DNA of 36,077 nucleotides from Candidatus Poribacteria bacterium (lineage in GTDB: Bacteria > Poribacteria > WGA-4E > WGA-3G), in the NCBI GenBank assembly GCA_012270875.1, contig JAAXHI010000454.1, positions 827-36,903 of the forward strand, given 5' to 3'. The notes beneath the pieces were generated by a model, which made no database searches, had not been told where the DNA came from, and worked only from the letters and a program-made list of their open reading frames with translations. Made by a program: the position numbers and the translations under genes. The stretch's first letter is position 1, and each line of letters starts with the position of its first letter. Below are positions 9,998 through 31,243 of the stretch, piece by piece.

Positions 9998-10028
9998 TGC
10001 ACCAGTTTGACTTATAAGTCGCGTCACT
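9998..10028 (+). promoter_or_regulatory. Putative ECF-dependent (autoregulatory) promoter TGCACC-N18-CGTCACT
   Basis: Motif conserved upstream of six ECF genes. Bipartite layout with a CGT-containing -10 is typical of ECF promoters. Confidence 0.75.
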
Positions 10029-10074
10029 GGTGTTAATCCGAGATGACGAACGCTCCTTTCCCATGGGATAATTG

Positions 10075-13000
10075 ATGAAAAACGACGATGCTCAACTCAT
10101 CCAACGCGTCCTCGCTGGCGATGAAACTGCGTTCTCTACGCTTGTGAAGAAATACCAGAAGTCGGTGCATGCGCTTGCGTGGCGGAAGGTTGGAGATTTT
10201 CACATTGCCGAGGAGATTACGCAGGATACCTTTTTAAAAGCGTATCAGCGACTTTCTACACTAAAGGAACCACAGCGTTTTCTGAGCTGGCTTTATGTGA
10301 TCGCGACGAACCTCTGTAAAGCGTGGCTTCGGAAAAAGCGTTTGCGAACACAGTCGTTGGAAAACACAGAGAGCATAGCGTTAGAAAAAGCGGCGTATTC
10401 AGGATATGTTATTTCAGAAAATGAACAGACAGCGATAGAAGCGCAACGCGAAGCCGTCAAAAAGTTGCTTGCTAAACTCCAAGAGAGTGAACGCACGGTT
10501 GTCACACTGCACTACTTCAGTGAGATGTCGAGTGCGGAGATTGGCGCGTTCTTAGGTGTTTCGGCAAATACAGTGAGAAGTCGTTTACGCCGCGCACAGC
10601 AACGTTTGAAAAGGGAGGAACCGATGATCCGAGAGGCTTTAGAGAATTTCCAAATCACACCAAATCTTACCGAGAACATCATGTGCGAGATTTCGCGTCT
10701 GAAACCAGTTGCGCCATCTGGCAGTAAACCGTTCGCACCATGGGCAATCGGCGTTTCCACATTAGCGGTTGTCTTATTGATGTTAGGCATCGGCAACCAA
10801 CAGTTATCGCGTTTCCAAAAGCCCTATGATTTCAATGCCGCCTCAGAAATGACGGTAGAGATTATTGAAGCACCCATCGTGCTAAACCTTGACTCTAAGC
10901 CAGATGTTCAGACACAGATCGGCAATTCTACTACACTCAGTAGTAACGGTGGTTCAGGGCAGCAACCAGATGATATCTTATTCGCCGCCGCACAAGCTGA
11001 TGGAGAAAACATCTCTACCCCTAAACAAGAATGGATTCAGGCGGAACCCCTCAAAGGGAGTGATGCCACTGCTTTATCTGTCACACCTGACGGTGAACTT
11101 TACACTGTTGCTGATGAGCGTATCTACAAAATCGGATCCGGCGGGAAAATGTGGCAACAGATCACCGATATTAACGCACTGGGTGTTAATTATATGTGGA
11201 CCGCCCGTATAGAAAAGTGGAATGATACACTCTATCTATCAGTGAGTAATGCACTCCTTGCTTCAAAAGATAACGGCAAGACGTGGGAATTGGTTCACTC
11301 TTTCCCAATAGATTATGGCTTGTTTGCTTTTGATTTGGAACTAACACCACAAGCGTTTTATATTATTTTCTCTGATTCCACTGCTTTTCGGTCTGAAGAT
11401 TTGGGTAAGACTTGGAAGGCAATGAACGTTGTCGGATTTCCAGAGAGACCCAACGCTATGGTCGTGTTCCAAGATACGCTGTTTGCCGGAACAGGTAATG
11501 GACTCTACCGATTGAAGGATAACAACTGGGAACGCGTGGACTTTCCAGTCCCTGTCGGAGAAACCCTTTCAATTGCCACGACTGAAGGAAAAATTTATGT
11601 TGCGGCAAAGTTTAATCAAGATAGAACCAGTTCTCAGCGAGTTCGTCAGGGACAGGCACGTGGCTGGTGGATATTCCGATCAACGGACTTCGGCGATTCG
11701 TGGGACGATATAACACCGACAAACGCTTGGCAGGTCATGGGGTTGCCACCAGAAATCAAACTCGTTGCTACGGGTGAAACGCTTCTGGCAATGGAACGGG
11801 GTATGGTTCGCTCTACCGATAGTGGAGACACATGGCTGCCTCGACAATTACCCGGCACCTCACCCCCAATGGACAGATTTAGTTCGGCTGTCGTAGTGAA
11901 CGACAACACCATTTATATTGGTAGCAGCGACGGTCTTTATCGTTCCACGGATGCTGGTATATCATGGAACGCGGTTAACATCAATAGACAGAATCGGAGT
12001 GGCATATATAATCTAACCGCATATACAGGACAGAATACACCGCCAACGCTTTACGCGATGTTCGGCGGAGAGATCGTAAAAACGACCAACAAGGGCAAAT
12101 CTTGGAGAACGATTCAGATGGGAACACCGATGACAGCACCTGATAGAGAAAAACCACCAACTTTTACGCAGATACGTGAATTCGGTGGGAGTGTCTATGC
12201 CAAAACAATGGGTTCTCGTGGTCCTGGCAACGCGCATAAAACCGGTTTATACCGCATTTCTGCAGACGGTAATACAGTCATGCCGATACAAGACGTGCCG
12301 CTCTTTGACTCACAGGAATTAAGTCGATTTTGGAATATAGGAAGGACAGGTGCTTTAGATGTGTCAGATAAGTCGTTCATTGAACAGTTGAAAGAAAATT
12401 TTAAGGGAGCAGACCAGTTCTTTAAAACGTTGGCACGAGGTGGCACTTTCAATCAACAAGAACTTCTTCGGCAACCACTTTATCAGGACCAGTATCGACT
12501 TATACGGAGGGGTATAAGTGGTGCTTTTGCGGTCAGTGACGACACGTTTTACGTGGAATACAACTTTAAACTCTACCGATGGAAGCCGGGCGAAACCGAA
12601 TGGTACGACACGGGTGTGCAAGAGACCGGCGAACTCCTTTATAGGGAAGCAATGAAGGCATTTGAAGGCATAGGTATGCCAGAGGTAAAGATCGATGAAG
12701 TTCTCTCGACTTGGCGGGGGTTCACACTTGCGGTTTCAGGAAACACGGTCTACGTTGGCAAACGGGATGGACACCTCGTTGCCTCGTTTGATATGGGAAA
12801 TAATTGGCTCGACCTCACGTCAGCACTGCCGTTCCCTGTTAAAGCCTTCAAAACCATCGTGTTTGTAGGATCCACCGTGTATGTAGCAACAGATGCAGGT
12901 GTCGCCGCGTCGGATGATGGAAAACAGTGGCATCCTGTTACCAATGCATCAGGAACGTGTCTCAATATGGGACAACTAACTGTTGCGGGAGACACCCTTT

Positions 13001-13164
13001 ACGGTTTTATCAAAGACACAGGTATCTATCGTTTGGAAAGCGGCACTTGGGAACAGGTTGTCTCAGAAATGCCGGATCATGTAGAGGGGTTCGCCGTTGG
13101 CGAGAATACCTTATACGTGAACACGCGGGACAGCAATGTGCTCCATTTCAACCTCGAAAAATAA
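10075..13164 (+). CDS. ECF sigma factor-TM-Asp-box/BNR beta-propeller fusion
   Basis: MKNDDAQLIQRVLAGD start shared with paralogs (ATG 10075). Region 4 EMSSAEIGAFLGVSANTVRSRLRRA, TM PWAIGVSTLAVVLLMLG, RSTDxGxxW repeats. Confidence 0.93.
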   Translation: MKNDDAQLIQRVLAGDETAFSTLVKKYQKSVHALAWRKVGDFHIAEEITQDTFLKAYQRLSTLKEPQRFLSWLYVIATNLCKAWLRKKRLRTQSLENTESIALEKAAYSGYVISENEQTAIEAQREAVKKLLAKLQESERTVVTLHYFSEMSSAEIGAFLGVSANTVRSRLRRAQQRLKREEPMIREALENFQITPNLTENIMCEISRLKPVAPSGSKPFAPWAIGVSTLAVVLLMLGIGNQQLSRFQKPYDFNAASEMTVEIIEAPIVLNLDSKPDVQTQIGNSTTLSSNGGSGQQPDDILFAAAQADGENISTPKQEWIQAEPLKGSDATALSVTPDGELYTVADERIYKIGSGGKMWQQITDINALGVNYMWTARIEKWNDTLYLSVSNALLASKDNGKTWELVHSFPIDYGLFAFDLELTPQAFYIIFSDSTAFRSEDLGKTWKAMNVVGFPERPNAMVVFQDTLFAGTGNGLYRLKDNNWERVDFPVPVGETLSIATTEGKIYVAAKFNQDRTSSQRVRQGQARGWWIFRSTDFGDSWDDITPTNAWQVMGLPPEIKLVATGETLLAMERGMVRSTDSGDTWLPRQLPGTSPPMDRFSSAVVVNDNTIYIGSSDGLYRSTDAGISWNAVNINRQNRSGIYNLTAYTGQNTPPTLYAMFGGEIVKTTNKGKSWRTIQMGTPMTAPDREKPPTFTQIREFGGSVYAKTMGSRGPGNAHKTGLYRISADGNTVMPIQDVPLFDSQELSRFWNIGRTGALDVSDKSFIEQLKENFKGADQFFKTLARGGTFNQQELLRQPLYQDQYRLIRRGISGAFAVSDDTFYVEYNFKLYRWKPGETEWYDTGVQETGELLYREAMKAFEGIGMPEVKIDEVLSTWRGFTLAVSGNTVYVGKRDGHLVASFDMGNNWLDLTSALPFPVKAFKTIVFVGSTVYVATDAGVAASDDGKQWHPVTNASGTCLNMGQLTVAGDTLYGFIKDTGIYRLESGTWEQVVSEMPDHVEGFAVGENTLYVNTRDSNVLHFNLEK

Positions 13165-13174
13165 TGTACCTATC

Positions 13175-13200
13175 AGGGCGGTCCTAAATGCCGCCCTTTC
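13175..13200 (+). terminator. Probable intrinsic terminator hairpin
   Basis: AGGGCGG-tcctaaatg-CCGCCCT-TTC 10 nt after the stop codon. Homologous hairpins at 25353 and 31138. Confidence 0.65.
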
Positions 13201-13237
13201 CTACCTCTACCCTATCTCCCTGTTCAACGTTAACATC

Positions 13238-13265
13238 TTGACAAACCCATCTGGTTTAGTAAAAT
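13238..13265 (+). promoter_or_regulatory. Sigma70-type promoter TTGACA-N16-TAAAAT
   Basis: Consensus -35 at 13238-13243, near-consensus -10 at 13260-13265. Confidence 0.6.
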
Positions 13266-13305
13266 AGTATTTCACTACATCCAACCCTATTTTTCATAAC
13301 ACATG

Positions 13306-13345
13306 CAGAATTATGCACCAGTTTGCCCCTTAAAAAGCGTCACTA
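13306..13345 (+). promoter_or_regulatory. Putative ECF promoter CAGAATTATGCACC-N18-CGTCACTA
   Basis: Same conserved motif; shares TATGCACCAGTTTG with the 9998 copy. Confidence 0.75.
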
Positions 13346-13366
13346 TAGCGCGATCGGAGGGAATTC

Positions 13367-16300
13367 ATGAAAACCACTGATGTTGAGCTCATCTATCGCG
13401 TTCTTGATGGCGACGATACCGCTTTTACTGTGCTTGTGAAAAAATATCATAAACCGGTTCACGCGCTCGTGTGGCGGAAGATTGGGGATTTCCATATCGC
13501 CGAAGAGATTACGCAGGATACATTCTTAAAGGCATATCAGGAGTTAGCAACGCTGAAGAAACCGCAGAGTTTTGCGAGTTGGCTCTATGTGATTGCTGCC
13601 AACAACTGTAGTACGTGGTTGCGTAAAAGGCGTTTATCGACGGAACCATTTGAAGATGCCCGCCTACAAGAGGCGACGTATTCCGGGTATGTCGTTGCCG
13701 AAAACGAGCGGACAGAAGCAGAGGCACAACGCGAAGTCGTCAAAAAGTTGCTTGCGAAACTCCAAGAGAGTGACCGCACGGTTATCACGCTGCATTACTT
13801 CGGTGAGATGTCCAGTGCGGAGATCGGCGCGTTTTTAGGGGTATCGGCAAACACGGTGAGGAGCCGTCTCCGCCGCGCACAGCAACGTTTGAAAAGGGAG
13901 GAACCGATGATACGAGAAGCATTAGAGAATTTCCAAATCACACCAAACCTTACAGAAAACATTATGCGCGAGGTTTCGCGTCTGAAACCTACTGCGCCAT
14001 CAGGTGGCAAACCGTTGGTGCCGTGGGCGATGGGTGTTTCCGTATTAGCAGTCGTCTTTTTGATATTCGGTATCGCAAACCATCAATCCTTATCGCGTTT
14101 CCAGAAGCCTTACAGTTTCAACGCTGCTTCAGAGTTGAAGGTTGAGTTGATTGACGCTCCGGTTGTGCTAAATCTTGAAGCCGAACCCGATAACCGCACG
14201 CAGCTCGGAAATGCCAACGCGCAGGATAAGAGCAATGGCGTTGGTAACCAAGTTGATGATACCGCGCCGTTTGACTTGGAAACAATCATCAGGAAAATAA
14301 AGCACTACGATAATGCTGTCACCTCCGTAACCGGTGATTTCATCATGGAAAGACAGAGTGGCTTGGGGATCTCGAAAAGAGAATACACACTGACGTTTGC
14401 AGGCGAGAAAGTCCGAATGGATCAGGAACAGGATCATACTCGCGTCCAGCTTTGGGATGGAAAACGACATTGGGAAGCACGCGAAGATAGAAGGATGATC
14501 TTTGAATTTGAAATTGCACCCGGCAAGGAAAAGACAGATATTGAGACGATTCGACAGGCATTCAAACATAACGGTATTGATCTCGCGGACGATGTACGCA
14601 TCGTTGATGACGACGAACCCCAAGATTTCACACTTATTGAAAACGAGACAGATCAAAAATACTATTTCTGGTTGGAGGGAGAGACGACGCTGTTGGTTTA
14701 TGACCTTAATCATCTTCAATATGATGTTCGACCTGGGTGGACAGGTAGTGCTGACAATGATCCGCGGTTTTGGCTCACCTTTCGTCCTGCTTCAAACAAT
14801 TCTTATCTATCCGAACCGCTGTGGTACTTGCTTGAGCAACATGAGAGTGAAATTATCGGGAATGAGATATTGAACGGAGACAAGACATCCGTGATTCGTT
14901 TGAATATACCAGCTCAGTCAAAAGGGGACTTCAAAAGACCTGCCCAGTCCGTTAAACTTTGGATTTCCCATGACAAAGGTTTCCGTCTGGTTAAGTTAGA
15001 AGAAAGTGCCTATACTATAGATAACCGGTCAGCGGGGCTCGGTTTCAAAGCGGGTGTAACCTATATTTCAAGCCGAGAAATTGCGTATCACGAATATCTA
15101 CCGGATGTCTGGTTTCCTGAGAGAATTGAGATATCTATTGCTCCTGTGTCATCACCGGACCAACAAGAGAAAGGTGAACCTGTACTCAAAAAGGTTCTAC
15201 TCACAAAGCAGTGTCGATTAAACACTGATGTCACAGGGTTGCTGGATTTAGGTCTACCGCTTGATACATCTATTTTCGATTACGGAACTGGTAAACCGAG
15301 TACAGTCGGCGATGTGTTAAATCCTGTATCGAAACCAGATATTCGGAAACTCTTCGGAAGTTCCGCTATGCCGGTTAAAAGCGATGGATCTGACCAACAC
15401 ACCTATAATCCATCTGTGTTTGACTTGGAAGCGATCATCACACAGATGAAGCACGCTGATAGTTCTGTCGTTTCCGCAAGCGGCAACTTCGTCATTGAAC
15501 ACCATAGAAAGCCGGGAATCGCGAAAACTGAGTATGCCTTAACGTTTGAAGGTGATGGAATCCGAGTAGAACGAGGATGGGGTTCCCCGCTTGCAGTAAA
15601 AGATTATCCACGCCTCAAAAAGGTTTTTCCGTCTGTTGAACTCGACGATGGAGAACGGCGATGGGAGATATATAAGTACAAAAAACACCTCTTTAGCGTT
15701 GAGATCACACTCGATAAGAAGCAGACAGCTCTTGAAACAATTCGACAGGCGTTCAAACAGCAAGAGATAGCACTTGCTGACGATGTACGCATCGTCGCGA
15801 GTGAAGAACCGGAGAGTTACACGCTTATTGAGAACCAGACGGGTAAAACCTACTTCATCTTGTGGGAAGGCGAAACAACGCTGAAAGTTTATGACCTTCA
15901 ACATACCGAATATGGTATCCGCGATCCATTTCGACGCAAAGTTTCTGACCGTCGTTTCGAGAGTCCACTTCGCTATCAGTGGAATATGCTTGCTGATCTC
16001 GATCCGAGATATTGGCTCACGTATCCAAGTGCTGGTGGAAGGACCTATCTCACAGAACCGCTTTGGCAGCTCCTTGAGAAGCACGAGAGCGAACTCTTGG
16101 GTAGTGAAGTTTTGAACGGTGATGAGACTTCAGTTATTCGTCTAAAGTTACCTGATGAGTCCCTTATCATCTGGATTTCTCATGAGAAGGGTTTTCGTCC
16201 GGTTAAGCTGCAAAGAGCATTTCCGCTTGAGAATCATCCGGTGGATATTATCGCAATGAAGTACTTCCAGTCGGGTGTGAACTATATAGAGACACGGGAA

Positions 16301-16810
16301 ATTGATTATCGCGAATATTTACCCGATGTCTGGTTTCCCAAGAAGATTGAACGGTACTTTACACCGATCGCAGCAGCAGATCTGCCACACGTCGCTGAAA
16401 TCATCCTAAAGACTGTGATTCACACGAAGCAGTGTCGGTTAAACACGGATGTTGCTGAGTTACTCCGTTTAAACCTGTCGCCTGATACACCTGTTCTCGG
16501 TTTAAAACCAGACGACGATACACCAATAGCGGAAAAAGTGGCATATTTACGTCAAGAAATCCCGCGTATCCTTAAACACCGCCTTGACTTAGAGAAACTG
16601 GATGATGAAATTGCTGAGTCTTACGGGGAAGACCCAGATCTTACCTTACTAAGGGATCAAGCTGCAGATGAAGCATTCGCACTGAAAGGGACTATCAGCC
16701 TTTTAACTTTAGACTACATACGATTTGCCGCGGATTCCTCAGCTCTTAAACCGGGCGGAGATTTTTATGAACTGTTGGAGAAAAACGGCATTTTTTATGA
16801 TTTTGAATAA
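13367..16810 (+). CDS. ECF sigma factor-TM fusion with a tandemly duplicated extracytoplasmic domain of about 380 aa (possible LolA/RseB-like fold)
   Basis: ECF regions 2 and 4, then TM. Repeats start FDLETII (14270) and FDLEAII (15419); each contains DPRxWLT, YLxEPLW, WISHxKGFR and EYLPDVWFP. Confidence 0.9.
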   Translation: MKTTDVELIYRVLDGDDTAFTVLVKKYHKPVHALVWRKIGDFHIAEEITQDTFLKAYQELATLKKPQSFASWLYVIAANNCSTWLRKRRLSTEPFEDARLQEATYSGYVVAENERTEAEAQREVVKKLLAKLQESDRTVITLHYFGEMSSAEIGAFLGVSANTVRSRLRRAQQRLKREEPMIREALENFQITPNLTENIMREVSRLKPTAPSGGKPLVPWAMGVSVLAVVFLIFGIANHQSLSRFQKPYSFNAASELKVELIDAPVVLNLEAEPDNRTQLGNANAQDKSNGVGNQVDDTAPFDLETIIRKIKHYDNAVTSVTGDFIMERQSGLGISKREYTLTFAGEKVRMDQEQDHTRVQLWDGKRHWEAREDRRMIFEFEIAPGKEKTDIETIRQAFKHNGIDLADDVRIVDDDEPQDFTLIENETDQKYYFWLEGETTLLVYDLNHLQYDVRPGWTGSADNDPRFWLTFRPASNNSYLSEPLWYLLEQHESEIIGNEILNGDKTSVIRLNIPAQSKGDFKRPAQSVKLWISHDKGFRLVKLEESAYTIDNRSAGLGFKAGVTYISSREIAYHEYLPDVWFPERIEISIAPVSSPDQQEKGEPVLKKVLLTKQCRLNTDVTGLLDLGLPLDTSIFDYGTGKPSTVGDVLNPVSKPDIRKLFGSSAMPVKSDGSDQHTYNPSVFDLEAIITQMKHADSSVVSASGNFVIEHHRKPGIAKTEYALTFEGDGIRVERGWGSPLAVKDYPRLKKVFPSVELDDGERRWEIYKYKKHLFSVEITLDKKQTALETIRQAFKQQEIALADDVRIVASEEPESYTLIENQTGKTYFILWEGETTLKVYDLQHTEYGIRDPFRRKVSDRRFESPLRYQWNMLADLDPRYWLTYPSAGGRTYLTEPLWQLLEKHESELLGSEVLNGDETSVIRLKLPDESLIIWISHEKGFRPVKLQRAFPLENHPVDIIAMKYFQSGVNYIETREIDYREYLPDVWFPKKIERYFTPIAAADLPHVAEIILKTVIHTKQCRLNTDVAELLRLNLSPDTPVLGLKPDDDTPIAEKVAYLRQEIPRILKHRLDLEKLDDEIAESYGEDPDLTLLRDQAADEAFALKGTISLLTLDYIRFAADSSALKPGGDFYELLEKNGIFYDFE

Positions 16811-16874
16811 GAAAAATTTATAGATCATAGGGGCAGGCGATGGTTTTCGAGTCAGTGAATATTAGGAGCAAGCA

Positions 16875-18239: not shown

Positions 18240-18252
18240 AAAAGATAAAAAA

Positions 18253-18281
18253 TTGACTGTCCCCGGAATTTGTGGTAAAAT
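18253..18281 (+). promoter_or_regulatory. Sigma70 promoter of the TA operon: TTGACT-N17-TAAAAT with TG extension
   Basis: -35 at 18253-18258, TGG at 18273-18275, -10 at 18276-18281. Confidence 0.7.
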
Positions 18282-18320
18282 ACTGGAAACTGTGACCTTG
18301 GACAAGGAGAAGCTTAAAAG

Positions 18321-18554
18321 ATGACCAGAGAGCAAATCATAACCCAAGACCCAGATATTCATGGCGGAGTGCCCGTGTTTACAGGCACCCGTGTGCCTGT
18401 CAAAAGTCTCATTGATCATCTCAAATCCGGCGAAAGCCTTGACTATTTTCTTGAAGGTTTCCCTTCTGTTTCTCGGCAACAGGCAGTCGCTTTTTTAGAA
18501 ATCGCATTGGTATCGGTTTCCATCGAAAATCCTCTGCATCGCGCAGACGGGTGA
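18321..18554 (+). CDS. DUF433-family antitoxin (VapB45-like)
   Basis: Signature ITQDPDIHGGVPVFTGTRVPVKSLIDHL..FLEGFPSVSRQQAVAFLE; 77 aa; AAGGAG RBS. Confidence 0.92.
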   Translation: MTREQIITQDPDIHGGVPVFTGTRVPVKSLIDHLKSGESLDYFLEGFPSVSRQQAVAFLEIALVSVSIENPLHRADG

Positions 18555-18567
18555 GGTCGAAAAATAG

Positions 18568-18897
18568 ATGCGCGTTCTACTCGATGAAAACTTAGACTGG
18601 CGGTTGGTCCGCTATTTTGACGCTGATTTTCAAGTCACGACGGTTTCTCAGCAAGGTTGGAAAGGCATGCGAAATGGCGAACTTCTTAGGCGAGCCGCCA
18701 AAGCCTTTGACGCACTTATCACAATGGATAGAGGGATTGAACATCAACAAAACCTCCGCAAATACACCATCGGTGTTATCCTCATCTCCGCCAAAAGCAA
18801 TCGGCTTCAAGACATTCAACCTGCTATGCACCGCGTCAATCAACTTCTAAAAACTCTTGAATCCGGACAGGTCATCCCCGTGTTGGTCAGCACCTAA
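18568..18897 (+). CDS. DUF5615-family PIN-like toxin (VapC45-like)
   Basis: MRVLLDENL..GWKGMRNGELL..FDALITMDRGIEHQQN; directly downstream of the DUF433 gene. Confidence 0.9.
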   Translation: MRVLLDENLDWRLVRYFDADFQVTTVSQQGWKGMRNGELLRRAAKAFDALITMDRGIEHQQNLRKYTIGVILISAKSNRLQDIQPAMHRVNQLLKTLESGQVIPVLVST

Positions 18898-18959
18898 CCG
18901 TTCGTTGTCAAAAAATTAGAATCTCAACCCTCTTATCATGAACCCACTCCATTTTTTTG

Positions 18960-18998: not shown

Positions 18999-19043
18999 TG
19001 TGTTGATATGAAATACTGAACATTCCCTATCCAGAGGTATCCG

Positions 19044-22289: not shown

Positions 22290-22334
22290 AGGGTTGATGT
22301 AAAGTAATGAACATTCCCTGTCCAGAGGTATCCG

Positions 22335-25331
22335 ATGAAAAATGACGATGTTCAGCTCATTCAACGCGTCCTTGAAGGCGATGATACGGCGTTCTCCACA
22401 CTTGTGAAAAAATATCAGCGATCTGTTCATGCGCTTGCGTGGCGGAAGGTCGGAGATTTCCATATTGCCGAGGATATTACACAGGATTCGTTCCTCAAAG
22501 CGTATCAGCGACTCTCTACGTTGAAGGAGCCACAGTCCTTTGCGAGTTGGCTGTACGTCATCACCGCAAATCAGTGTAAAGCGTGGATTCGGAAGAAACG
22601 GACGTGGATTCAGTCGTTGGAAGACACAAGCAGCGTACAGTTAGAAAGAGCGACCTACTCTGGACATATCATTGCGGAGAACGAGCAGATGACAGAAGAA
22701 GCACAACGTGAAGTCGTCAAGAAACTACTCGCCAAATTACAAGAAAGTGACCGAACGGTCATTACGCTCTATTACCTCGGGGGAATGACGTATGAAGAAA
22801 TTAGCAATTTTTTAGGTGTATCGGTAGGTGCGATTAAAAGTCGGCTTCACCGAGCAAGGCAGCGCTTAAAAAAGGAGGAACCGATGATTAGAGAGGCTTT
22901 AGGCAATTTCCAAATTACGCCGAATCTTACCGAGAATATCATGCAAGAAATCTCGCGTCTGAAACCGATTGCACCATCAGGTAGCAAACCGATTGTGCCG
23001 TGGGGAATCATAGGTGTTTCCACAATAGCAGTCGTCTTTTTAATATTAGGTGTTGGCACGGAGTACTTATCGCGTTTTCAAAAACCGTACAGTTTTGATG
23101 CGACATCAGAAATGATGGTTGATATTATTGAAACGCCAATCGTATTAGATATTGAATCGAAACCCGATGTCCGGACGCAACTTGGCAGCACTACCGCGCT
23201 CAGTAAAAACGATGGTGCCGGTCAGCAACCTGATGAGGTCTTATTTGCTGCTGCACAAGCAGAAGGAGAGGACGTTTCTGTCCCGAAACAGCAGTGGATC
23301 CGGGCAGGACCGATCAAAGGAAGTAGAGCAGAAGGTTTACTTGCGACATCTGAGGGTGAGTTTTACACTTTTGCTGATATGCAAATTTACAAATTAGAAA
23401 CCGATGGAAAAAAGGGGCGACACATCTTTGATTTTAGGTCCCTGGTAAATTCTCGTCCGCCAGCTGCACCGCTCGCAAAGTGGAAAGACACCCTCTACAT
23501 TATGCTGGCAAACGAACTTCTTGCTTCAAAGGACGACGGTCAGACATGGAATTTGGTACACACTTTGCCAGCCGTACATTACTTTGCGATTGGTTTGATA
23601 CTAACGGATCAAGCGTTCTATGCCGCTTTTGAGGACGGTATTTTCCGTTCTGAGGACCTTGGCAAAACGTGGAAGGCAATAAACGATGGATTAATGATGG
23701 GGGATATGGGGTATATCCGTTCTATCGTCAATATTCAAGACACATTGTTTGCTGGGACCAGCAACGGACTCTACCGCCTCAGTGCTGACAGTTGGCAACG
23801 TGTGGCGTTTCCAGTATCCGTTGGACGGATCCGTTCAGCTGCAGCGACTGAAGAGAAACTTTACGTTGTTGCGGAGATGGCTGATACGGATCCTCGTAAA
23901 GTTTCCAGGGGGCTGCAGCGGGCTTGGTCAATATTTCGCTCAACTGATTTGGGGAGTTCGTGGGACGATATTACACCAACAAACGCTTGGGCAGTAAAAG
24001 GATGGCCACCCTCTATTAAACTTATTGCTGCTGGCGACACACTTTTAGCGATGGAACAAGGGATGGTGCGCTCTACCGATGGTGGAAACACGTGGCTGCC
24101 CACACAATTACCCGGGACATCCCCTACAATGAATGCTGATGTAGACGTTGCGATAGCAGTAAACGACGTTTTTTATGTTGGGAGTTGGCGTAGTGGACTC
24201 CATCGTTCTACCGATGCTGGCAAATCGTGGAACATCGTAAACATCACGCCGGATACAGGTCAAATAGGTAATCTCATCGCGCATAGAAAAAACAACACAC
24301 CTCTGACGCTCTACGCGAGATATGAAGAAGAAAAGGTCGTAAAAACCACTGATAGAGGTAAGTCTTGGAAGACCGTTCAAATAGAAATGCCGATGACAGT
24401 GCCTCGCAGAGAAAGCATACCAAGTATTACCCATATCGTCAAAGCCGATGGTAAAATCTATGCCAAAGGTGGCGATGTGCTTGGTAGAGGAAAGACGCGA
24501 ATATATCGCGTATCTACAGATAGCAATTCGCTTGTTCCGATACAAGGCATGCCGATCTTTGACGGAATGCCTTTAACGTTCGAGTCAAGTCGAATAAGGG
24601 GAATGAGAAGGGACGGGGCTAACTTGTCAGATGCCTCAGTCATTGAGCAGTTGCGAGAAAAGGCTCCTGGTGCGGACGAATTCTTCAGGCAGTTGGTAGA
24701 ATGGGATCCTCTACAGCCAGATGTCTATATACAATTAGGGTTCCGTAGGGGGGCGTTTGCTGTTAGTGGCGACACGTTCTACATGGAATACAACTATAAA
24801 CTCTTCCGATGGGAACCCGGTGATACTGAATGGTACGACACCGAACAGGAAGCAACCGTTGAACTGTCTCTGGGCTTAGCATCCAGAAAGCTTAAGCTCG
24901 CGACTTCAGGGAACACCGTCTACGTCGGCAAACGGGATGGGCACCTCGTGGTCTCGTTTGATAAAGGAAACAATTGGATTGATCTCACGCCGATCTTACC
25001 CTTTCCCATCAAAGCCTTTTATGATATAGTGTTTGTGGGTTCCACGGTATATGTAGCAACGGATGCGGGTGTCGCTGCATCAAGTGATGGCAAACAGTGG
25101 CGTGCGATCACCGATGCAACGGGCACGCCTCTTATTATCGGGCCGTTGGCAGTTGATGGCACAAACGTTTATGGTGTTTCCAAGTCAGGTGTCCATCGGT
25201 TGGAAAACGGCACATGGAAAGAGGTTATTTCAGAGAGACCAAATAGCATGACCTCGCTTGCTGTTGATGGGAACATGTTGTACGTCGGCACGCAGGACAG
25301 CGGGGTGCTGCATTTCAATCTTGACGAATAA
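22335..25331 (+). CDS. ECF sigma factor-TM-Asp-box/BNR beta-propeller fusion
   Basis: Region 4 GMTYEEISNFLGVSVGAIKSRLHRA. Sensor closely related to 10075 (WDDITPTNAW, VYVGKRDGHLV). Confidence 0.93.
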   Translation: MKNDDVQLIQRVLEGDDTAFSTLVKKYQRSVHALAWRKVGDFHIAEDITQDSFLKAYQRLSTLKEPQSFASWLYVITANQCKAWIRKKRTWIQSLEDTSSVQLERATYSGHIIAENEQMTEEAQREVVKKLLAKLQESDRTVITLYYLGGMTYEEISNFLGVSVGAIKSRLHRARQRLKKEEPMIREALGNFQITPNLTENIMQEISRLKPIAPSGSKPIVPWGIIGVSTIAVVFLILGVGTEYLSRFQKPYSFDATSEMMVDIIETPIVLDIESKPDVRTQLGSTTALSKNDGAGQQPDEVLFAAAQAEGEDVSVPKQQWIRAGPIKGSRAEGLLATSEGEFYTFADMQIYKLETDGKKGRHIFDFRSLVNSRPPAAPLAKWKDTLYIMLANELLASKDDGQTWNLVHTLPAVHYFAIGLILTDQAFYAAFEDGIFRSEDLGKTWKAINDGLMMGDMGYIRSIVNIQDTLFAGTSNGLYRLSADSWQRVAFPVSVGRIRSAAATEEKLYVVAEMADTDPRKVSRGLQRAWSIFRSTDLGSSWDDITPTNAWAVKGWPPSIKLIAAGDTLLAMEQGMVRSTDGGNTWLPTQLPGTSPTMNADVDVAIAVNDVFYVGSWRSGLHRSTDAGKSWNIVNITPDTGQIGNLIAHRKNNTPLTLYARYEEEKVVKTTDRGKSWKTVQIEMPMTVPRRESIPSITHIVKADGKIYAKGGDVLGRGKTRIYRVSTDSNSLVPIQGMPIFDGMPLTFESSRIRGMRRDGANLSDASVIEQLREKAPGADEFFRQLVEWDPLQPDVYIQLGFRRGAFAVSGDTFYMEYNYKLFRWEPGDTEWYDTEQEATVELSLGLASRKLKLATSGNTVYVGKRDGHLVVSFDKGNNWIDLTPILPFPIKAFYDIVFVGSTVYVATDAGVAASSDGKQWRAITDATGTPLIIGPLAVDGTNVYGVSKSGVHRLENGTWKEVISERPNSMTSLAVDGNMLYVGTQDSGVLHFNLDE

Positions 25332-25352
25332 TAGAAATCAATATATCTTACC

Positions 25353-25380
25353 TGGGCGGTGCAACAATACCGCCCATTCT
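25353..25380 (+). terminator. Probable terminator hairpin
   Basis: TGGGCGGT-gcaacaat-ACCGCCCA-TTCT after the stop codon. Confidence 0.6.
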
Positions 25381-25529
25381 CTCCGTATTCAAATCCTCAA
25401 TAATTTACGCAAATATTTACACGCCCTTTCCAGATCAGATGCGCTTTTAGCTGCATTTGTGGTATAATATTTTGATATAAGTGAGAATTGCTTGGATTGT
25501 GCCTACTACGGCTTAAGGAGGGAACCCCC

Positions 25530-27860
25530 ATGATTTGCGACGCTTTAGACAATATTCAATTCATGCCAAATGCTACACAGCGCGTAGGACGTGAAATGCT
25601 ATGTACCAAATCTACTAAACTGTTAGTGTCATGGACAATCGCTGCTTTGATGGTGATTGTGCTGCTGATGCAGACACATCAGGTCTTAGCCAACCAAGAG
25701 GACTATACCCGATGGGGATTACCTAAAGGTGCCAAAGCACGGATCGGGAAAGGTGTGTTCACTGATATGCAGCTATCACCGGATGGCACGCGTTTGGCGA
25801 TTGCGAGTTCCGCAGGTGTCTGGCTTTATGATGTCAGTACAGGGGATGAGATTGCGCTTATCACGGAGAATACGACTCTCATCGGACAGGTCGCCTTTTC
25901 TCCTGACAGTACAACGCTTGCGACTGCTGGTGGGGACAACAAATGTCAAATCTGGGATGTTGAAAGTCGGACACTTCTACTGACATTCAAGATGCCTGAT
26001 TATTGGATCAAGACATTGGCATTCATGGATGACGGAAAAACCCTCGTCGGCGAAGGGATAATTGACAAAATCTCACACCCTCTGTTGGGGGGTGGACCTT
26101 GGATGTGGGATGTTCCCAAGGTCTGGATGTGGGATATCCAGACTGGAAAGCAGTTAGATACTTTCACCACTGAACTGCCGAGATTCAATCCGATGAAAGA
26201 TGTGCGGTCCAGTGTCATGGTAAAGGCATTTGCCAATAACGATCGTGTTATATTTGCCTTTGAGAATAAAGACGGAACGATTAGCGTCAAAGATGGACGC
26301 ACTAACCGCGAAGTAGCTGTGCTTCCCAATCTTAATGACGAGGTAAAAGCGTTCGGTTTTTCACCAGATGGTAAAGGGGTTGCCATTGCGACTTCAAGGG
26401 ACGTACATCTCTGGGACCTTGAGACAGGAGAACAGATACTAACATTTCCAAAGCAGGTTGCAGATTTCTATGGAAATCCGTCTATACTGGCATTCTCAAA
26501 AGATGGAAAAACGCTTGCCGTTGCGGGTTTAGACGACATTGAGATATGGAATATGGATACGCATTCGCATGTTGCTACACTTAAAAATACAGATGGCGGT
26601 TTGTGGGAATTTGTGTTATCAAGGGACGGCGCAACCGTCATCACTATGAATCACCACGGCAGGGTAGATTTGTGGTCGGCACAGACCGGCAAACATGAAC
26701 GCACCTTGACGATAGGATATACGAATAGATTCTCCAAGTTGGCGTTCGCGCCCGATGGGAAAACGATTGCGAGTAGCACGGGTAGCAAAGTTCACCTGTG
26801 GGATACAAACACTCGGACTGAAAGATTGCGGATGCAACTGCCCGGACGCATTGAAAATGAAAAAAAACGGGTTGAACCGGATTTGCGAGCCGCTGTGCCG
26901 ATAGAACGTGGAAGTGAAATCATCGGCTTAGCGTTTTCTGAATATAACACACCGCTCGCTGCTGCCGCGTATAGCAAAACTCTCGTCGCTTTTACCGTTT
27001 CCGGCAAAGTTGAAATATGGGATGTCGCTACTGGAGAATATAGTGCCGATTATACCCTCGCGGACATGCCTCGTAAAGGGATGCCAGGGCTGTTAGCACC
27101 CGATTTGACTGCTGTGCCAACGCCTCGGACCCCGGGAATATATCACCTCTTCGCAACACCGTTTGAGAGATCAGGTCACGCCTTGTATGCAGCTGCCTTT
27201 TCACCAGATGGTGAAAAACTAACTGTTAAAAATCGGGACGACGTGATGGAGATATGGGATGTTCTGACCCGTAGACGCTTATGCACACTCCCAGATCGCT
27301 CTCCAAACAAGAGTGCCGCGTTGGCATCTACGTTGGCATTCACACCGGATGGCGAAGTGCTTGCGATTGGTGAAGGTGCGGATGTCCATCTGTCACATAC
27401 GGATACAGGTGAAACGTTTGCCATATTCAGCGTCTCTCAGGAGAAACCGAATGCGATAGATAAATTACAAGGATTGTTCGACTCGCAGCGTTTTGATGTA
27501 TCGGTCGGTGCCGTAGCATTAGCGCGCCCTGGAAAACTTCCGGCTGTTGCTGCGAGTGGAGGCAAGACAATTTATTTTTGGAACATCGCAAAGCGGGAAC
27601 CTATTACGCTCAAAGAACATACAAGTGAAGTCTGTAAACTGGCGTTCACACCCGACGGCACTGTTCTGGCAAGTGGTGATGTTGATGGGACAATTCACTT
27701 GTGGTCGCTGCCCGCAGGAGACAAAATTGCCACATTCAATCCGTATGTGAGTCCCGTTAGTCAGTTAGTTTTCTCACCTGATGGAAAAACTCTTGCAAGC
27801 ACAAACCTACATTCTCGTTTTGCTGGAACGATACTCCTTTGGGACGTTCCACCCAAGTAA
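25530..27860 (+). CDS. Membrane-anchored or secreted WD40 protein; sigma-less paralog of the ECF-WD40 fusions
   Basis: AAGGAGGG RBS before ATG 25530. N-terminus MICDALDNIQFMPNATQRVGREM..KLLVSWTIAALMVIVLLM aligns with the ECF linker + TM. EDYTRWGLPKGAKARIGKG then WD40 repeats. TGGTATAAT at 25460-25468. Confidence 0.88.
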   Translation: MICDALDNIQFMPNATQRVGREMLCTKSTKLLVSWTIAALMVIVLLMQTHQVLANQEDYTRWGLPKGAKARIGKGVFTDMQLSPDGTRLAIASSAGVWLYDVSTGDEIALITENTTLIGQVAFSPDSTTLATAGGDNKCQIWDVESRTLLLTFKMPDYWIKTLAFMDDGKTLVGEGIIDKISHPLLGGGPWMWDVPKVWMWDIQTGKQLDTFTTELPRFNPMKDVRSSVMVKAFANNDRVIFAFENKDGTISVKDGRTNREVAVLPNLNDEVKAFGFSPDGKGVAIATSRDVHLWDLETGEQILTFPKQVADFYGNPSILAFSKDGKTLAVAGLDDIEIWNMDTHSHVATLKNTDGGLWEFVLSRDGATVITMNHHGRVDLWSAQTGKHERTLTIGYTNRFSKLAFAPDGKTIASSTGSKVHLWDTNTRTERLRMQLPGRIENEKKRVEPDLRAAVPIERGSEIIGLAFSEYNTPLAAAAYSKTLVAFTVSGKVEIWDVATGEYSADYTLADMPRKGMPGLLAPDLTAVPTPRTPGIYHLFATPFERSGHALYAAAFSPDGEKLTVKNRDDVMEIWDVLTRRRLCTLPDRSPNKSAALASTLAFTPDGEVLAIGEGADVHLSHTDTGETFAIFSVSQEKPNAIDKLQGLFDSQRFDVSVGAVALARPGKLPAVAASGGKTIYFWNIAKREPITLKEHTSEVCKLAFTPDGTVLASGDVDGTIHLWSLPAGDKIATFNPYVSPVSQLVFSPDGKTLASTNLHSRFAGTILLWDVPPK

Positions 27861-27949
27861 AACCGACCGCGTCATGGGTAACACCAAATCAGAAAGATAA
27901 AGTCACATTATAGAGATTTTGGAACGCTATGAGGTATCGGTCTGTAAGA

Positions 27950-28003
27950 GCGCAATAATGCACGTCGCATTTGGGCGAGTACGCCGCAGAATTGCGCTAC
28001 TAC
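27950..28003. repeat. REP-like stem GCGCAAT..ATTGCGC-TACTAC enclosing dispersed repeat copy 2
   Basis: GCGCAAT 27950-27956 pairs with ATTGCGC 27991-27997; the inner 31 bp match 417-447. Confidence 0.75.
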
Positions 28004-28059
28004 GAGCGGGTTTTTCCTTAGTGAGAGGCGTTTATTTAGAAATGGTATAATCATTATTG

Positions 28060-28099
28060 CAGAATTATGCAACCGTTTTCCGCCTAAGTCGCGTCACTA
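28060..28099 (+). promoter_or_regulatory. Putative ECF promoter CAGAATTATGCAAC-N18-CGTCACTA
   Basis: Conserved motif. It lies inside the ORF-track extension 28057-28143, which supports ATG 28144 as the true start. Confidence 0.75.
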
Positions 28100-28143
28100 A
28101 GAGTCAATGTGGAATATTGAACTCCCTATTTTGGAGAAGTCTG

Positions 28144-29754
28144 ATGAAAAACGACGATACCCGACTGATTCAATGCGTCCTTGCCGGCGATGATACTGCT
28201 TTTGCTGAGCTTGTGAAAAAGTACCAGAAGCCGGTTCACGCGCTTGTGTGGCGGAAAGTTGGTGATTTCCACGTCGCCGAGGAAATTACACAGGACACCT
28301 TCCTGAAGGCATACCAGAAACTGACGACGCTCAAGGAGCCGCAGCGTTTTGTGAGTTGGCTTTATGTAATAGCCACGAACCGTTGCAAGGCATGGCTGCG
28401 TAGGAAACGTTTATGGATGCAGTCGTTGGATGCCACGAGTAGTAGGCAGTTGGAAAAGGCTACATATTCTGAATATGTCATTTCGGAGAACGAACGCGTA
28501 ACAGTAGAAACACAGCGCGAAGTCGTCAAAAAGCTGCTTGCGAAGTTACAGGAGAGTGAGCGGACAGTCATGACACTCCACTATTTCGGGGAGATGACGT
28601 GTGAAGATATTAGCAAGTTTTTGGGTGTATCGGTAGGTGCGATTAAGAGTCGGCTCAGGCGTGCGCGCCACCGCTTAAAGAAGGAGGAACCCATGATACG
28701 CGAGGCTTTAGAACATTTCCAAATCACACCGAATCTGACAGAGGATATCATGCGCGAGGTTTCGCGTCTGAAACCGATTGCGCCGTCTGGTAGCAAGCCG
28801 TTCGTGCCGTGGGCAATCGGCGTTTCTACGTTAGCAGTCATCCTTTTGATGTTAGGTGTCGGAAACCGTCAATACCTGTCGCGTTTCCAAAAATCGTATA
28901 GTTTTGATGCGACTTTAGAGATGAGCGTTGAACTCATTGATGCACCGATTGTGTTGAATCTTGAATCCAAACCTGATGTTCGGACGCAGCTCGGCAATGC
29001 TGCCACCCCCAGTAAAAACGACGGGTTCAGTCAACAACTCGATCAACCAGAACATACAACCCTATTTGCTGCCGCGCAGGTAGATCAAACTGAGAAACCT
29101 ACTGTTACTGATAAAGGTAATCGCTACATCATCCTTGAGACAAGCACCCATGAGGAAGGTGGAGAAGTTTTTGCGAGCGGAAGTTTTTCTTTTACGAGAA
29201 CAGGTGAGATTTTGACAGTTACAAAGGCTGGAACTACCGGGACCGGTAAAGGTGACGCAACCCCGATGTACGTGTTGATGAGTTATATTCTCAACCATAA
29301 TATTGACCTTTTCAAGTTCCCTTTGGTTATAGGAGATACTTGGACACAGAAAGGTCCCTGGGCCCCACACATACAGACGACCTTAGTGGGTTATGAAAAG
29401 GTAGAAGTTGCCGGAGGGACTTTCACGGACTGCCTTAAGCATGAAACGCTTTTTACAAACGCGAGGGTAGGTGCTGGCACGCGTTATTTGTGGTTTGCCA
29501 AAGGGGTTGGTGTCGTTAAAATGCGCTATGAACATTCCAACGGTGTCACCACTGAAGCAGAATTGCTTAACTACAATGTTCCGAAAGGCGAAGAATATCT
29601 CCCTTTGCAATACGGTAATATGTGGACCTACAGATTGCAAAACGAGTCTCAAGAAAAACCGATTATTGAAAAGTGCGAGGTTGTCGAAAATAGCGATCAG
29701 CCCTTAGATTCTGTCGATTCTTATTTTTTTCTCACGCTCCTCCAAAAGCTCTGA
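28144..29754 (+). CDS. ECF sigma factor-TM fusion, 5' part; appears to continue by a -1 frameshift at T7 (29724-29730) into the next ORF
   Basis: MKNDDTRLIQ start with GGAGA RBS, ECF regions 2 and 4, TM, then a domain with VEVAGGTFTDCLK..WFAKGVGVVK. Ends with a short tail after the T-run. Confidence 0.88.
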   Translation: MKNDDTRLIQCVLAGDDTAFAELVKKYQKPVHALVWRKVGDFHVAEEITQDTFLKAYQKLTTLKEPQRFVSWLYVIATNRCKAWLRRKRLWMQSLDATSSRQLEKATYSEYVISENERVTVETQREVVKKLLAKLQESERTVMTLHYFGEMTCEDISKFLGVSVGAIKSRLRRARHRLKKEEPMIREALEHFQITPNLTEDIMREVSRLKPIAPSGSKPFVPWAIGVSTLAVILLMLGVGNRQYLSRFQKSYSFDATLEMSVELIDAPIVLNLESKPDVRTQLGNAATPSKNDGFSQQLDQPEHTTLFAAAQVDQTEKPTVTDKGNRYIILETSTHEEGGEVFASGSFSFTRTGEILTVTKAGTTGTGKGDATPMYVLMSYILNHNIDLFKFPLVIGDTWTQKGPWAPHIQTTLVGYEKVEVAGGTFTDCLKHETLFTNARVGAGTRYLWFAKGVGVVKMRYEHSNGVTTEAELLNYNVPKGEEYLPLQYGNMWTYRLQNESQEKPIIEKCEVVENSDQPLDSVDSYFFLTLLQKL

Positions 29755-29825
29755 GGACTATACCTGATTTATCTGAAAAAGTTTCAATAATTATAGAGGA
29801 CATACGGATCGGTTTCAGTGAGGTA

Positions 29826-31064
29826 ATGATGGATGCTGATATTGCGTATACAAGTGTACCAATAGGCGACCTTAAATGGGTAGACGGCGGTAGAACCCTT
29901 GTTATCCCGTTGAGTCAACCCCTATTACCTTCAAAAACCTATAGGCTTATATTGGCGGAAGGCTATAGGAATATGGCAGGCGTTGTGTTCCCAGAATATA
30001 CGCTCACTTTTACAACCGAAGGTCCCGAACCGGTTACGCCTACTTTTGTGGACACCACGCCTGTCTATGTGGCAGATATTGAAGAATTGAACCTCTCAAA
30101 TGAACTGCTCTGCCGCGTTACCGTGAATCCGACAGTGGGTTTTAACTTCCCGTATTATCTGTTCATTCCACAAGGGATAAACTTGAACAAACCTGTTCAT
30201 CTGCTCGTGGAACCCTGCAACACAGGGGTGAGTCAGACTCGTAAAAGTCTTGATAGAAAGACAAAGGCTTTGGCTGAAGCATCTCATGCGACTGTCATCG
30301 CCAAAAGACTGGGAGTCCCGTTGCTCGTGCCTGTTTTTCCGAGACCCGGCGGAGATCAATGGCTCGTGCCTGTTTCTCCGAAACCCGGTAAAGATCAATG
30401 GCAAGCCTACACGCATGCCTTGGATAGAGACACCCTCCTGATTAGAGATGGCGACCTCAAGAGAATCGACCTGCAACTCATCAATATGATTGCGCATGCG
30501 CAAAGGCTCCTACGACACAATAATATGAAAGTGAATGAGAAGGTCTTTATGAACGGGTTTTCGGCTTCTGGGACGTTTGCAAATCGGTTTGCTATTTTAC
30601 ATCCAACAATTGTCCGAGCGGTTGCAACTGGCGGCATCAATAGCATCCCGACCTTTCCGACAGAGCGTTGGGATGATGTCACTATGCGGTATCCGGTTGG
30701 CATCGCGGATGTGAAAGAGATCGCTGATATTAAATTTGATGAAGAGGCGTATAAACGTGTCTCCCAATACATCTACATGGGAGCTTTGGATGACAATGAT
30801 ACTGTTTCGTATCGAGATGCCTACGATGTAGTGGATGCCGAGTTGGTCAAAAGCCTCATTGGAGCTGAAATGATGCCAGATCGATGGGACATGAGTCAGT
30901 CGATATACAGGGCACTTGAGATTCCTGCGCAGTTTGTTACATACGAAAATACTGGGCATCAAATCAAGAATGAGATGATAGATGATATTGTCGCTTTTTT
31001 CGAGGCAAACTCCGAGGATGAGATAGTTGAAATCGTCCCACATCAATATCCATCCGCTGAGTGA
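29826..31064 (+). CDS. Ig-like (Big_5-like) domain + alpha/beta-hydrolase-fold domain; probably the 3' part of the 28144 fusion
   Basis: Frame open from 29694: PPKALRTIP..IRIGFSEVM..WVDGGRTLVIPLSQPLLPSKTYRL..YTLTFTT. Nucleophile elbow GFSASG, Asp in GALDDND, His in NTGH. No signal peptide of its own. Confidence 0.8.
   Translation: MMDADIAYTSVPIGDLKWVDGGRTLVIPLSQPLLPSKTYRLILAEGYRNMAGVVFPEYTLTFTTEGPEPVTPTFVDTTPVYVADIEELNLSNELLCRVTVNPTVGFNFPYYLFIPQGINLNKPVHLLVEPCNTGVSQTRKSLDRKTKALAEASHATVIAKRLGVPLLVPVFPRPGGDQWLVPVSPKPGKDQWQAYTHALDRDTLLIRDGDLKRIDLQLINMIAHAQRLLRHNNMKVNEKVFMNGFSASGTFANRFAILHPTIVRAVATGGINSIPTFPTERWDDVTMRYPVGIADVKEIADIKFDEEAYKRVSQYIYMGALDDNDTVSYRDAYDVVDAELVKSLIGAEMMPDRWDMSQSIYRALEIPAQFVTYENTGHQIKNEMIDDIVAFFEANSEDEIVEIVPHQYPSAE
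30323..30402 (+). repeat. 39-bp in-frame tandem duplication
   Basis: Encodes LVPVFPRPGGDQW followed by LVPVSPKPGKDQW. Confidence 0.85.
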
Positions 31065-31137
31065 AAGTGAGTGAGGTCTATCACAAGAGAGATACCTGAC
31101 CCTTTTATCCGCTAAGTATGAATTAGTTTATTTTGTC

Positions 31138-31164
31138 AGGGCGGTGCTAAATGCCGCCCTTTTC
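31138..31164 (+). terminator. Probable terminator hairpin
   Basis: AGGGCGGT-gctaaat-GCCGCCCT-TTTC, nearly identical to 13175. Confidence 0.65.
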
Positions 31165-31203
31165 CACCTTTCCTCTTCTCTTTCCTTCACAATCCACTTT
31201 TTT

Positions 31204-31243
31204 CAGAATTAAGCAACCATTTTGCCCCTAAATTGCGTCACTA
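31204..31243 (+). promoter_or_regulatory. Putative ECF promoter CAGAATTAAGCAAC-N18-CGTCACTA
   Basis: Conserved motif ending 46 nt upstream of ATG 31290. Confidence 0.75.

Follow-up and report, generated by a model that had tools for sequence, protein, structure and literature searches.

Promoters read by extracytoplasmic function (ECF) sigma factors carry an AAC-type -35 and a CGT-type -10 element as hallmarks (PMC7776599, PMC5758882), and the residues by which these sigmas select their bases were defined by Todor et al. (2020, PNAS, PMC7776599) using about 42,000 ECFs followed by saturation mutagenesis. In the numbering of Escherichia coli RpoE, Arg171 was assigned to position -31, Ser172 to -34 and Asn84 to -13/-12, and a pairing of Phe175 with -32 was modelled. 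Sigma factors of this class can also be joined to their own regulators, as in IutY of Pseudomonas putida (ECF243), a sigma/anti-sigma hybrid that is released by Prc and RseP (PMC8999054). ECF autoregulation, the residue/base code and the fusion of sigmas to membrane-spanning extensions are each established. Here we describe a stretch of 36,077 nucleotides from a Candidatus Poribacteria genome (assembly GCA_012270875.1, contig JAAXHI010000454.1), referred to below as the window, in which six paralogous genes, predicted to encode membrane-anchored ECF sigmas with variable outer domains, each follow an ECF-type promoter. Across the wider family of such genes, the bases of the promoters covary with the DNA-contact residues of the sigmas that are encoded behind them.

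Like IutY, as described in PMC8999054, the Poribacteria proteins are predicted to combine in one chain an ECF sigma at the N-terminus, a membrane span and an outer portion at the C-terminus. They differ from it in that no FecR-type or other anti-sigma domain is among the domain matches listed for them, in that their sigma is nearest to SigW and RpoE and not of the FecI type, and in that their outer domains are swappable propellers and dozens of copies occur in a genome. They also resemble the actinobacterial groups ECF52, ECF48 and ECF53, of which SCO4117 is an example and which, in the descriptions of PMC5826349 and PMC8999054, carry a long C-terminal extension with transmembrane helices and an outer sensing domain. 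Those groups, however, are described there with an anti-sigma module of the zinc-finger (ZAS-like) type and with a proline-rich region, neither of which is among the domain matches listed for the Poribacteria paralogs; they belong to another phylum and are not known, from the same descriptions, as large tandem arrays of paralogs.

For the promoters, the closest described counterparts are those of sigma-M, -W, -X and -V of Bacillus subtilis (Gaballa et al. 2018, PMC5758882), with which they share an AAC-type -35, a T-tract just downstream from it and a CGT-type -10. The T-tract recalls the selectivity element reported for the B. subtilis ECF promoters, and the paralogous ECFs of that organism show partly overlapping promoter recognition, as appears to be the case here (PMC5758882). 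As presented in the same work, the B. subtilis system comprises four stand-alone sigmas with separate anti-sigmas, whereas here there are at least 40 tethered fusions and the spacer is 17–18 nt. No paper on these particular proteins or promoters was found in the literature on Poribacteria sigma or ECF factors, and the supplements of PMC7826278 and PMC7776599 may list a matching group.

The octamer GCGTCACT occurs six times in the window, exclusively on the plus strand (10021, 13337, 18990, 22281, 28091 and 31235), and each copy lies 22–47 nt 5' of the ATG of one of the six paralogous genes. This count was reached by none of 100 dinucleotide-preserving shuffles of the window, for which the mean was 1.09, and the window holds 6 of the 85 copies found on both strands of the whole genome. 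The original prediction had placed an invariant GCGTCACT at these six sites, all of which were recovered, and had noted CAGAATT upstream of five of them. As a word CAGAATT is not enriched (10 copies in the window against 7.0 expected, with 10 or more in 21 of the 100 shuffles); five of the ten copies (13306, 18960, 22251, 28060 and 31204) do, as claimed, lie 30–31 nt before GCGTCACT, where they abut the 5' side of the -35, and the promoter copy at 10021 has ATTCATTTTT in their place. When the six upstream regions are aligned they yield a common block, TTGCAGAATT-(A/G)-TG[C/A/T][A/G][A/C]C-..TTT..-N-GCGTCACTA, followed by a leader with a GGAG-type ribosome site and then by ATG-AAA-AA.

The six promoters, P1 to P6, all lie on the plus strand. 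P1 (9998–10028) consists of a -35 TGCACC (9998–10003) and a -10 CGTCACT (10022–10028). P2 (13304–13344) has ..GCAGAATT upstream of the same hexamer (13314–13319) and CGTCACT at 13338–13344, while P3 (18958–18997) carries TTGCAGAATT, TGTGAC (18968–18973) and CGTCACT (18991–18997). P4 (22249–22288) has TTTCAGAATT, TGAAAC (22259–22264) and CGTCACT at 22282–22288, P5 (28058–28098) has TTGCAGAATT, TGCAAC (28068–28073) and CGTCACT at 28092–28098, and P6 (31202–31242) has TTTCAGAATT, AGCAAC (31212–31217) and CGTCACT at 31236–31242. From hexamer to CGTC the spacers measure 18, 18, 17, 17, 18 and 18 nt, respectively, and both of the 17-nt copies precede genes of the GGMTYEEIS type. Among the six, TGCACC is paired with the sigma4 helix ..SANTVRSRLRRA, TGCAAC and AGCAAC both with ..IKSRLRRA, TGAAAC with AIKSRLHRA and TGTGAC with AIKNRVYRA. 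These combinations, and the spacer shorter by 1 nt in the two GMTYEEIS-type copies, were reproduced as first reported, except that the register GCAACC, in which the element is shifted rightwards by one base, was abandoned in favour of TGCAAC because the latter lines up every copy.

The genome, with 5.74 Mb distributed over 598 contigs and a completeness of 81%, contains 41 tblastn matches with 46–100% identity to the module of sigma and adjoining tether, together with 15 additional, more distant ECF-like tblastn matches. At least 577 stretches in public genomes encode a relative, of which the best 80 were kept; the best 71 related loci, nearly all labelled Candidatus Poribacteria, were pooled with the genome to give 205 distinct paralog starts. 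Promoter positions are numbered such that the AAC of the hexamer occupies -33 to -31, as in RpoE. A first template search, which forced C at -31 and CGTC at -10, located the promoter at 132 of the 205 starts and missed the TGAGAT, CATC and AGTC variants. A position weight matrix (PWM) built from these 132 sites then detected the promoter TTGCAGAATT-aTGCAAC-N17/18-CGTCACT at 177 of the 205 starts with scores above 10 bits, compared with a maximum of 5.8 in shuffled upstream regions, and P5 attained the top score of the whole genome, 57.8 bits.

Among the 177 sites the -35 hexamer is TGCACC (46), TGAGAC (40), TGCAAC (38), AGCAAC (12), TGTGAC (11), TGAAAC (8), TGAGAT (8) or one of several rarer forms, and the -10 is CGTCACT in 85, with CGTCATT, CATCATT, AGTCACT and others making up the remainder. 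The spacer is 18 nt in 93 sites and 17 nt in 84, and the distance from the end of the -10 to the start codon is 45–49 nt in 109. Entropy is low in the -35 and -10 blocks, the T-tract after the -35 is kept across the family, and the columns in mid-spacer and downstream are variable.

The 177 sigma/promoter pairs reveal a close correspondence between particular bases and particular residues, the latter numbered throughout according to the fourth paralog of the window (gene at 22335). At -34/-33, 103 of 104 CA promoters are accompanied by S169, all 49 AG promoters by N169 and all 11 TG promoters by T or N169. At -31/-30, Cc or Ct is accompanied by K168 (131/132), Ca by R168 (32/33) and Tt also by R168 (8/8). 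C at -32 goes with R172 in 47 of 49 pairs, and, in the -10 region, C at -13 goes with R86 (157/158) and A with S or G86 (12/13). The contrast between TVR- and IK-type helices, to which the original prediction drew attention, corresponds to the switch between K168 and R168 and pairs with the base that follows the hexamer.

Clean raw tables of this kind can arise from clades alone, and three controls were therefore run. The first was based on mutual information in the set of 132 pairs: for the core columns of the -35, six to eight of the top ten protein partners fall in the sigma4 helix-turn-helix, which accounts for 23 of the 164 variable columns, in contrast to control DNA columns (upstream, mid-spacer and downstream), which mostly have 0–3 such partners, with the flanking columns m35_1, sL2 and d3 having 4. 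Independent-pairs sign tests, the second control, provided too few events, and a branch co-change test was therefore employed. A maximum-likelihood tree with 352 branches was built from the 177 sigma modules, changes were placed on it by Fitch parsimony, and changes in each protein column were counted on those branches where a promoter column also changes; for the null, branches were drawn according to their total protein changes, which corrects for long branches.

On this tree -34/-33 changes on 10 branches, and seven of nine changes at S169 coincide with them (0.24 expected, p ~1e-5); four protein columns fall below p = 0.01 for -34/-33 and all of them lie in the helix-turn-helix. Of the nine changes at K168, six fall on the 15 branches where -30 changes (p ~1e-5) and three on the 4 branches where -31 changes (p 7.5e-4); at Y153, 7 of 20 changes coincide with those of -30. 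The -13 position changes on 7 branches, which take in four of the eight changes at R86 (p 2e-5) and five of the 29 at A83 (p 9e-4), while -12 changes on only 3. Three control column sets yielded 0, 1 and 2 of 174 protein columns at p<0.01, none of which falls within residues 146–178 or 50–92. A second tree, built without columns 78–90 and 146–178, gave S169 with -34/-33 in 11 of 12 (p<=2e-5 on both trees), K168 in 7 of 13 with -30 and in 4 of 13 with -31 (p 1.6e-4), Y153 in 10 of 22, R86 with -13 in 5 of 8 and A83 in 5 of 35 (p 3e-4). The association of -35 bases with helix residues thus holds for S169 and K168 on both trees after correction for phylogeny, with no such partners for the control columns. 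The smallest p-values equal the resolution of the simulation and, with about 2,300 tests in the run on the first tree, a Bonferroni correction is survived only by the top three or four pairs. The localisation of all the top partners is a stronger argument than the p-values, and the covariation is real and exceeds what shared descent provides.

The length of the spacer, which had been linked originally to the GMTYEEIS type, changes independently on only 9 branches and has no protein column at p<0.01. It was dropped as a candidate determinant of specificity, being inseparable from descent.

In a phmmer alignment to E. coli RpoE (1or7_A), K168 corresponds to Arg171, S169 to Ser172, H172 to Phe175, A83 to Asn84 and R86 to Val87. 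The equivalents of Ser172, Arg171 and Asn84, namely S169, K168 and A83, therefore covary in this family with the same bases as in the code of Todor et al. (PMC7776599), or with adjacent ones. There are differences in detail. K168 here follows -30 as well, more strongly than -31, and R86, the counterpart of Val87, pairs with -13, a combination that is not among the pairs named there, with the supplements possibly listing more. Moreover, the family does not confirm the pairing of Phe175 with -32 once the tree is taken into account. The residue/base code itself is not new; what differs is the material, since that study drew on about 42,000 ECFs from all bacteria, whereas here a single young paralog family from one phylum is involved, in which the rest of protein and promoter is mostly constant.

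We consider it likely that each site is an autoregulatory ECF promoter of the gene that follows it, and that the promoters and sigmas of the family diverged together as dialects. The promoter variants match the contact residues of the sigma encoded behind them, which suggests that each promoter is read by its own sigma, and this covariation provides the best available evidence for autoregulation. On this reading, each gene would form a positive loop through transcription from its own ECF promoter, and the family would have radiated to at least 41 copies in the genome with promoters and sigmas diverging jointly. Changes at -34/-33, -31/-30 and -13, matched by changes at the equivalents of RpoE Ser172, Arg171 and Asn84/Val87, would have given rise to a few promoter dialects which, through three or four contact residues, would bias each sigma to its own promoter and lessen cross-talk. 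Perception of a signal by the outer domain would lead to release or activation of the sigma module, possibly, if IutY (ECF243) and the ECF52 group are a guide, by regulated intramembrane proteolysis. A gene for a Peptidase_M50, a site-2-type protease, is present in the genome and also in 14 of 14 control genomes; it lends little weight to proteolytic release because such genes are near-universal.

A number of results weigh against a strict form of this reading. In the PWM search the motif is absent from 28 of the 205 paralog starts, including the start at 627 in the window. Nine of the 27 promoter-bearing paralogs of the genome itself have TGCAACc with an 18-nt spacer, which makes strict self-specificity unlikely, and a further 28 sites in the genome that score at least 18 bits, including 13 of the TGCACCc type, stand before non-sigma genes. 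The pair of -32 and residue 172 is not significant on either tree despite its strong raw association, and the link of -15 with A83 and K82 weakens on the second tree (A83 p 0.038). The maximum-likelihood tree is itself a quick estimate over about 215 columns, with SH-aLRT support only and an arbitrary root, and the parsimony placement is approximate. Finally, three RNA runs carrying the same species label gave 0 reads on positions 9900–29899 of the window at 90% likeness, which constitutes no test of transcription, and no RNA data set was listed as containing positions 18800–28700; a DNA run of the contig covered 25 of 30 bins, in pieces.

The consequences for the small specificity code proposed originally are twofold. 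Its covariation stood, being borne out by the 177 pairs, the branch tests and the clean controls, while the partly orthogonal loops would be a prediction: the sharing of TGCAACc and the 18-nt spacer by 9 of 27 paralogs implies that insulation can only be partial and group-wise, and orthogonality looks limited. The 27 paralogs do carry 21 different five-residue signatures (positions 153, 168, 169, 171 and 172), and no contact residue distinguishes the two TGCACCa genes of the window (10075 and 13367). From the 28 sites that precede non-sigma genes it follows that the promoters are not purely autoregulatory and that some family members probably have wider regulons; these sites may form the wider regulon of the members with [A/C]KSLR-type signatures.

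Of the alternatives, the one that survives best, and which we nevertheless hold to be unlikely, is that promoter and gene were simply duplicated together, with the motif retained for a shared reason of some kind, such that the promoter variants are neutral marks of clades with no connection through sigma4 or sigma2 contacts. The main dialects do mostly coincide with orthologous clades across genomes, and independent events are few, with 10 branches for -34/-33, 4 for -31 and 7 for -13. Moreover, the independent-pairs tests, which are underpowered, produced 4–9 supported pairs for each of 12 trait pairs and no significant result (p 0.125–1), a further point against joint divergence, the direction of the pairs being constant in all but a few random pairings. 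Hitch-hiking, however, predicts equal covariation with all columns that mark the clades, and what is seen is that the -35 columns have their partners only in the helix-turn-helix and -13 only at sigma2 residues 83 and 86, while control DNA columns of the same regions lack such partners. The partners are, in addition, positions for which base specificity has been shown experimentally in other ECFs, and R168 recurs, together with Ca on two distinct -32 backgrounds and, in a third clade, together with Tt.

Readers other than the downstream sigma are a further alternative, in that the promoters could be served by one or a few family members acting as master sigmas, or by a distinct ECF that is not part of a fusion, within a cascade or a shared regulon. 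The nearly invariant -10 would accord with this, as would the TGCAACc/18-nt promoters common to 9 of the 27 paralogs, the sites before non-sigma genes with their 13 TGCACCc-type members, and the 15 more distant ECF-like matches. We regard it as quite improbable, as a master sigma does not predict promoter variants that follow the contact residues of the sigma directly downstream. That the conserved block is the binding site of another regulator, or an element of the transcribed leader, is very improbable: conservation without protein covariation of the TTGCAGAATT block and of parts of the leader would fit, but the blocks match the ECF hallmarks as given in PMC5758882 (AAC -35, CGT -10 and T-tract), keep a spacer of variable sequence at 17 or 18 nt in 177 of 177 sites and covary with the DNA-contact residues of the sigmas.

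Within the preferred reading of autoregulation and joint divergence, a stronger version can be formulated tentatively, namely that insulation of at least 40 tethered sigmas is maintained by selection through a minimal code (residues 168, 169 and 86/83, perhaps with 153 and 172), in which a switch of one residue would be matched by a switch of one base in the gene's own promoter, such that each outer sensor domain would drive a private loop of positive feedback and a few members, those of the TGCACCc type, would have turned into wider regulators. This version is possible, and we would on balance doubt it. If it were true, the family would offer a ready-made natural set of near-isogenic orthogonal sigma/promoter pairs, and would document directly the emergence of new regulatory channels from duplicated genes.

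What is new is the combination of features: within one genome, tethered ECFs that lack a recognisable anti-sigma domain have radiated to a very large number, and their promoters have diverged in step with the contact residues. It constitutes a natural experiment, in that a single genome carries dozens of closely similar sigma modules whose differences fall mainly on known contact residues, each beside a promoter that differs at the matching bases, and it is a clean natural test bed rather than a surprise. It leads to predictions for single swaps, K168R with -31/-30, S169N or S169T with -34/-33 and R86S with -13, and provides a route to asking how paralogous signalling channels gain insulation after duplication. 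It also supports the view that many of the eukaryote-like WD40 and BNR repeat proteins of the sponge-symbiont Poribacteria may be the outer sensor heads of self-amplifying transcription switches.

At the N-terminus of all seven paralogs encoded in the window, Pfam lists Sigma70_r2 and Sigma70_r4_2 or r4, and no other sigma region. The three paralogs tested scored 109.8, 91.1 and 95.7 bits with the TIGR02937 sigma70-ECF model, against a cut-off of 42.9, and reached no equivalog or subfamily cut-off, the best models being SigW and RpoE; the nearest solved relatives of the sigma module are likewise SigW and E. coli RpoE. The sigma4 domain is followed by a conserved stretch of about 35 residues, EEPMIREALENFQITPNLTENIM.., the tether, and then by a hydrophobic run of about 20 residues (approximately 222–241) that is kept in 7 of 7 and is a putative membrane helix, as judged from its hydrophobicity. 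Beyond it, a conserved juxtamembrane segment, SRFQKPYSFDA.., leads into an outer region that varies among BNR/Sortilin-type propellers, WD40 propellers and domains without a family. No anti-sigma domain (FecR, zf-HC2/ZAS or RskA) is among the Pfam matches listed for the seven, these being, for the two paralogs with WD40 domains, the best 25 families. An AlphaFold model of residues 1–300, based on 47 sequences, shows two confident helical domains within residues 1–190, corresponding to sigma2 and sigma4, and assigns a pLDDT below 50 to the tether and membrane part; Y153 opens the first helix of the helix-turn-helix, and residues 164–188 lie in the recognition helix. By their predicted layout, the products of the six promoter-bearing genes are membrane-anchored ECF (group 4) sigma-70 factors fused to variable outer domains.

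All six genes lie on the plus strand and encode the ECF sigma (sigma2 and sigma4), tether and hydrophobic helix. The first (10075–13164, 1029 amino acids) has a BNR/Sortilin-type propeller and the signature residues S R S L R. The second (13367–16810, 1147 amino acids) has the same signature and an internally duplicated outer domain with no family match, and the third (19044–21881, 945 amino acids) carries WD40 propellers and the residues Y K N V Y. A BNR/Sortilin-type propeller recurs in the fourth (22335–25331, 998 amino acids; Y K S L H), while the fifth (28144–29754, 536 amino acids from the ATG; C K S L R) has a small outer domain with no family match and the sixth (31290–33164; V K S L R) a WD40 domain. 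The frame of this last ectodomain ends early and resumes in another frame at 33293–34300 (plus strand), with about 35 residues disrupted relative to the protein encoded at 19044; the broken frame could reflect a pseudogene, a frameshift or an assembly error.

A seventh paralog (627–3704, plus strand), whose sigma module is 50% identical, lacks the GCGTCACT promoter. The region upstream from it (450–626) contains a twice-repeated block, ..ATCTGGAAGATTATGCTACAAAG.., which also occurs before paralog C275_224 elsewhere in the genome, and residue 168 is T or H in these two proteins, being T in the seventh paralog. Five tandem genes for TolB-like PD40 propellers (3758–8962, plus strand) follow the latter. 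Starting 157 nt past the end of the gene at 22335, there is also a sigma-less paralog (25488–27860, plus strand) with a degenerate tether ..LKEGTPMICDALDNIQFMPNATQRV.., a hydrophobic helix and a WD40 ectodomain, the product of which could act as a partner, either sensor-only or as a decoy, or might be a remnant.

A scan for sigma70-type promoters found no site that coincides with the ECF motifs and a single strong site near a paralog, TTGACA-16-TAAAAT (11/12) at 13238–13265 on the plus strand, some 50 nt ahead of the ECF -35 that belongs to the gene at 13367, which may thus possess a second, basal promoter. Terminator-like sites numbered 17 in the scan, against 19.1 by chance, and are not above expectation.

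The PWM sites before non-sigma genes lie outside the window, for example at C439:655 and on C385, C181, C420, C537, C440 and C343, and their targets include an ABC ATPase-like open reading frame, a secreted WD40 protein and an open reading frame of 3196 amino acids. Two further elements flank the promoters themselves. The block TTGCAGAATT immediately 5' of the -35 (13304–13313, 18958–18967, 22249–22258, 28058–28067 and 31202–31211) is conserved family-wide and covaries with no protein column in the branch tests on both trees; it may serve as an UP-like element or bind a factor shared by the promoters. Downstream, a leader of about 46 nt, ..TTGATATGAAAT.ATGAACATTCCCT.TCCAGAGGTATCCG-ATG (18998–19043, 22289–22334 and relatives), is conserved in many paralogs well past the ribosome-binding site and may be a second regulatory element.

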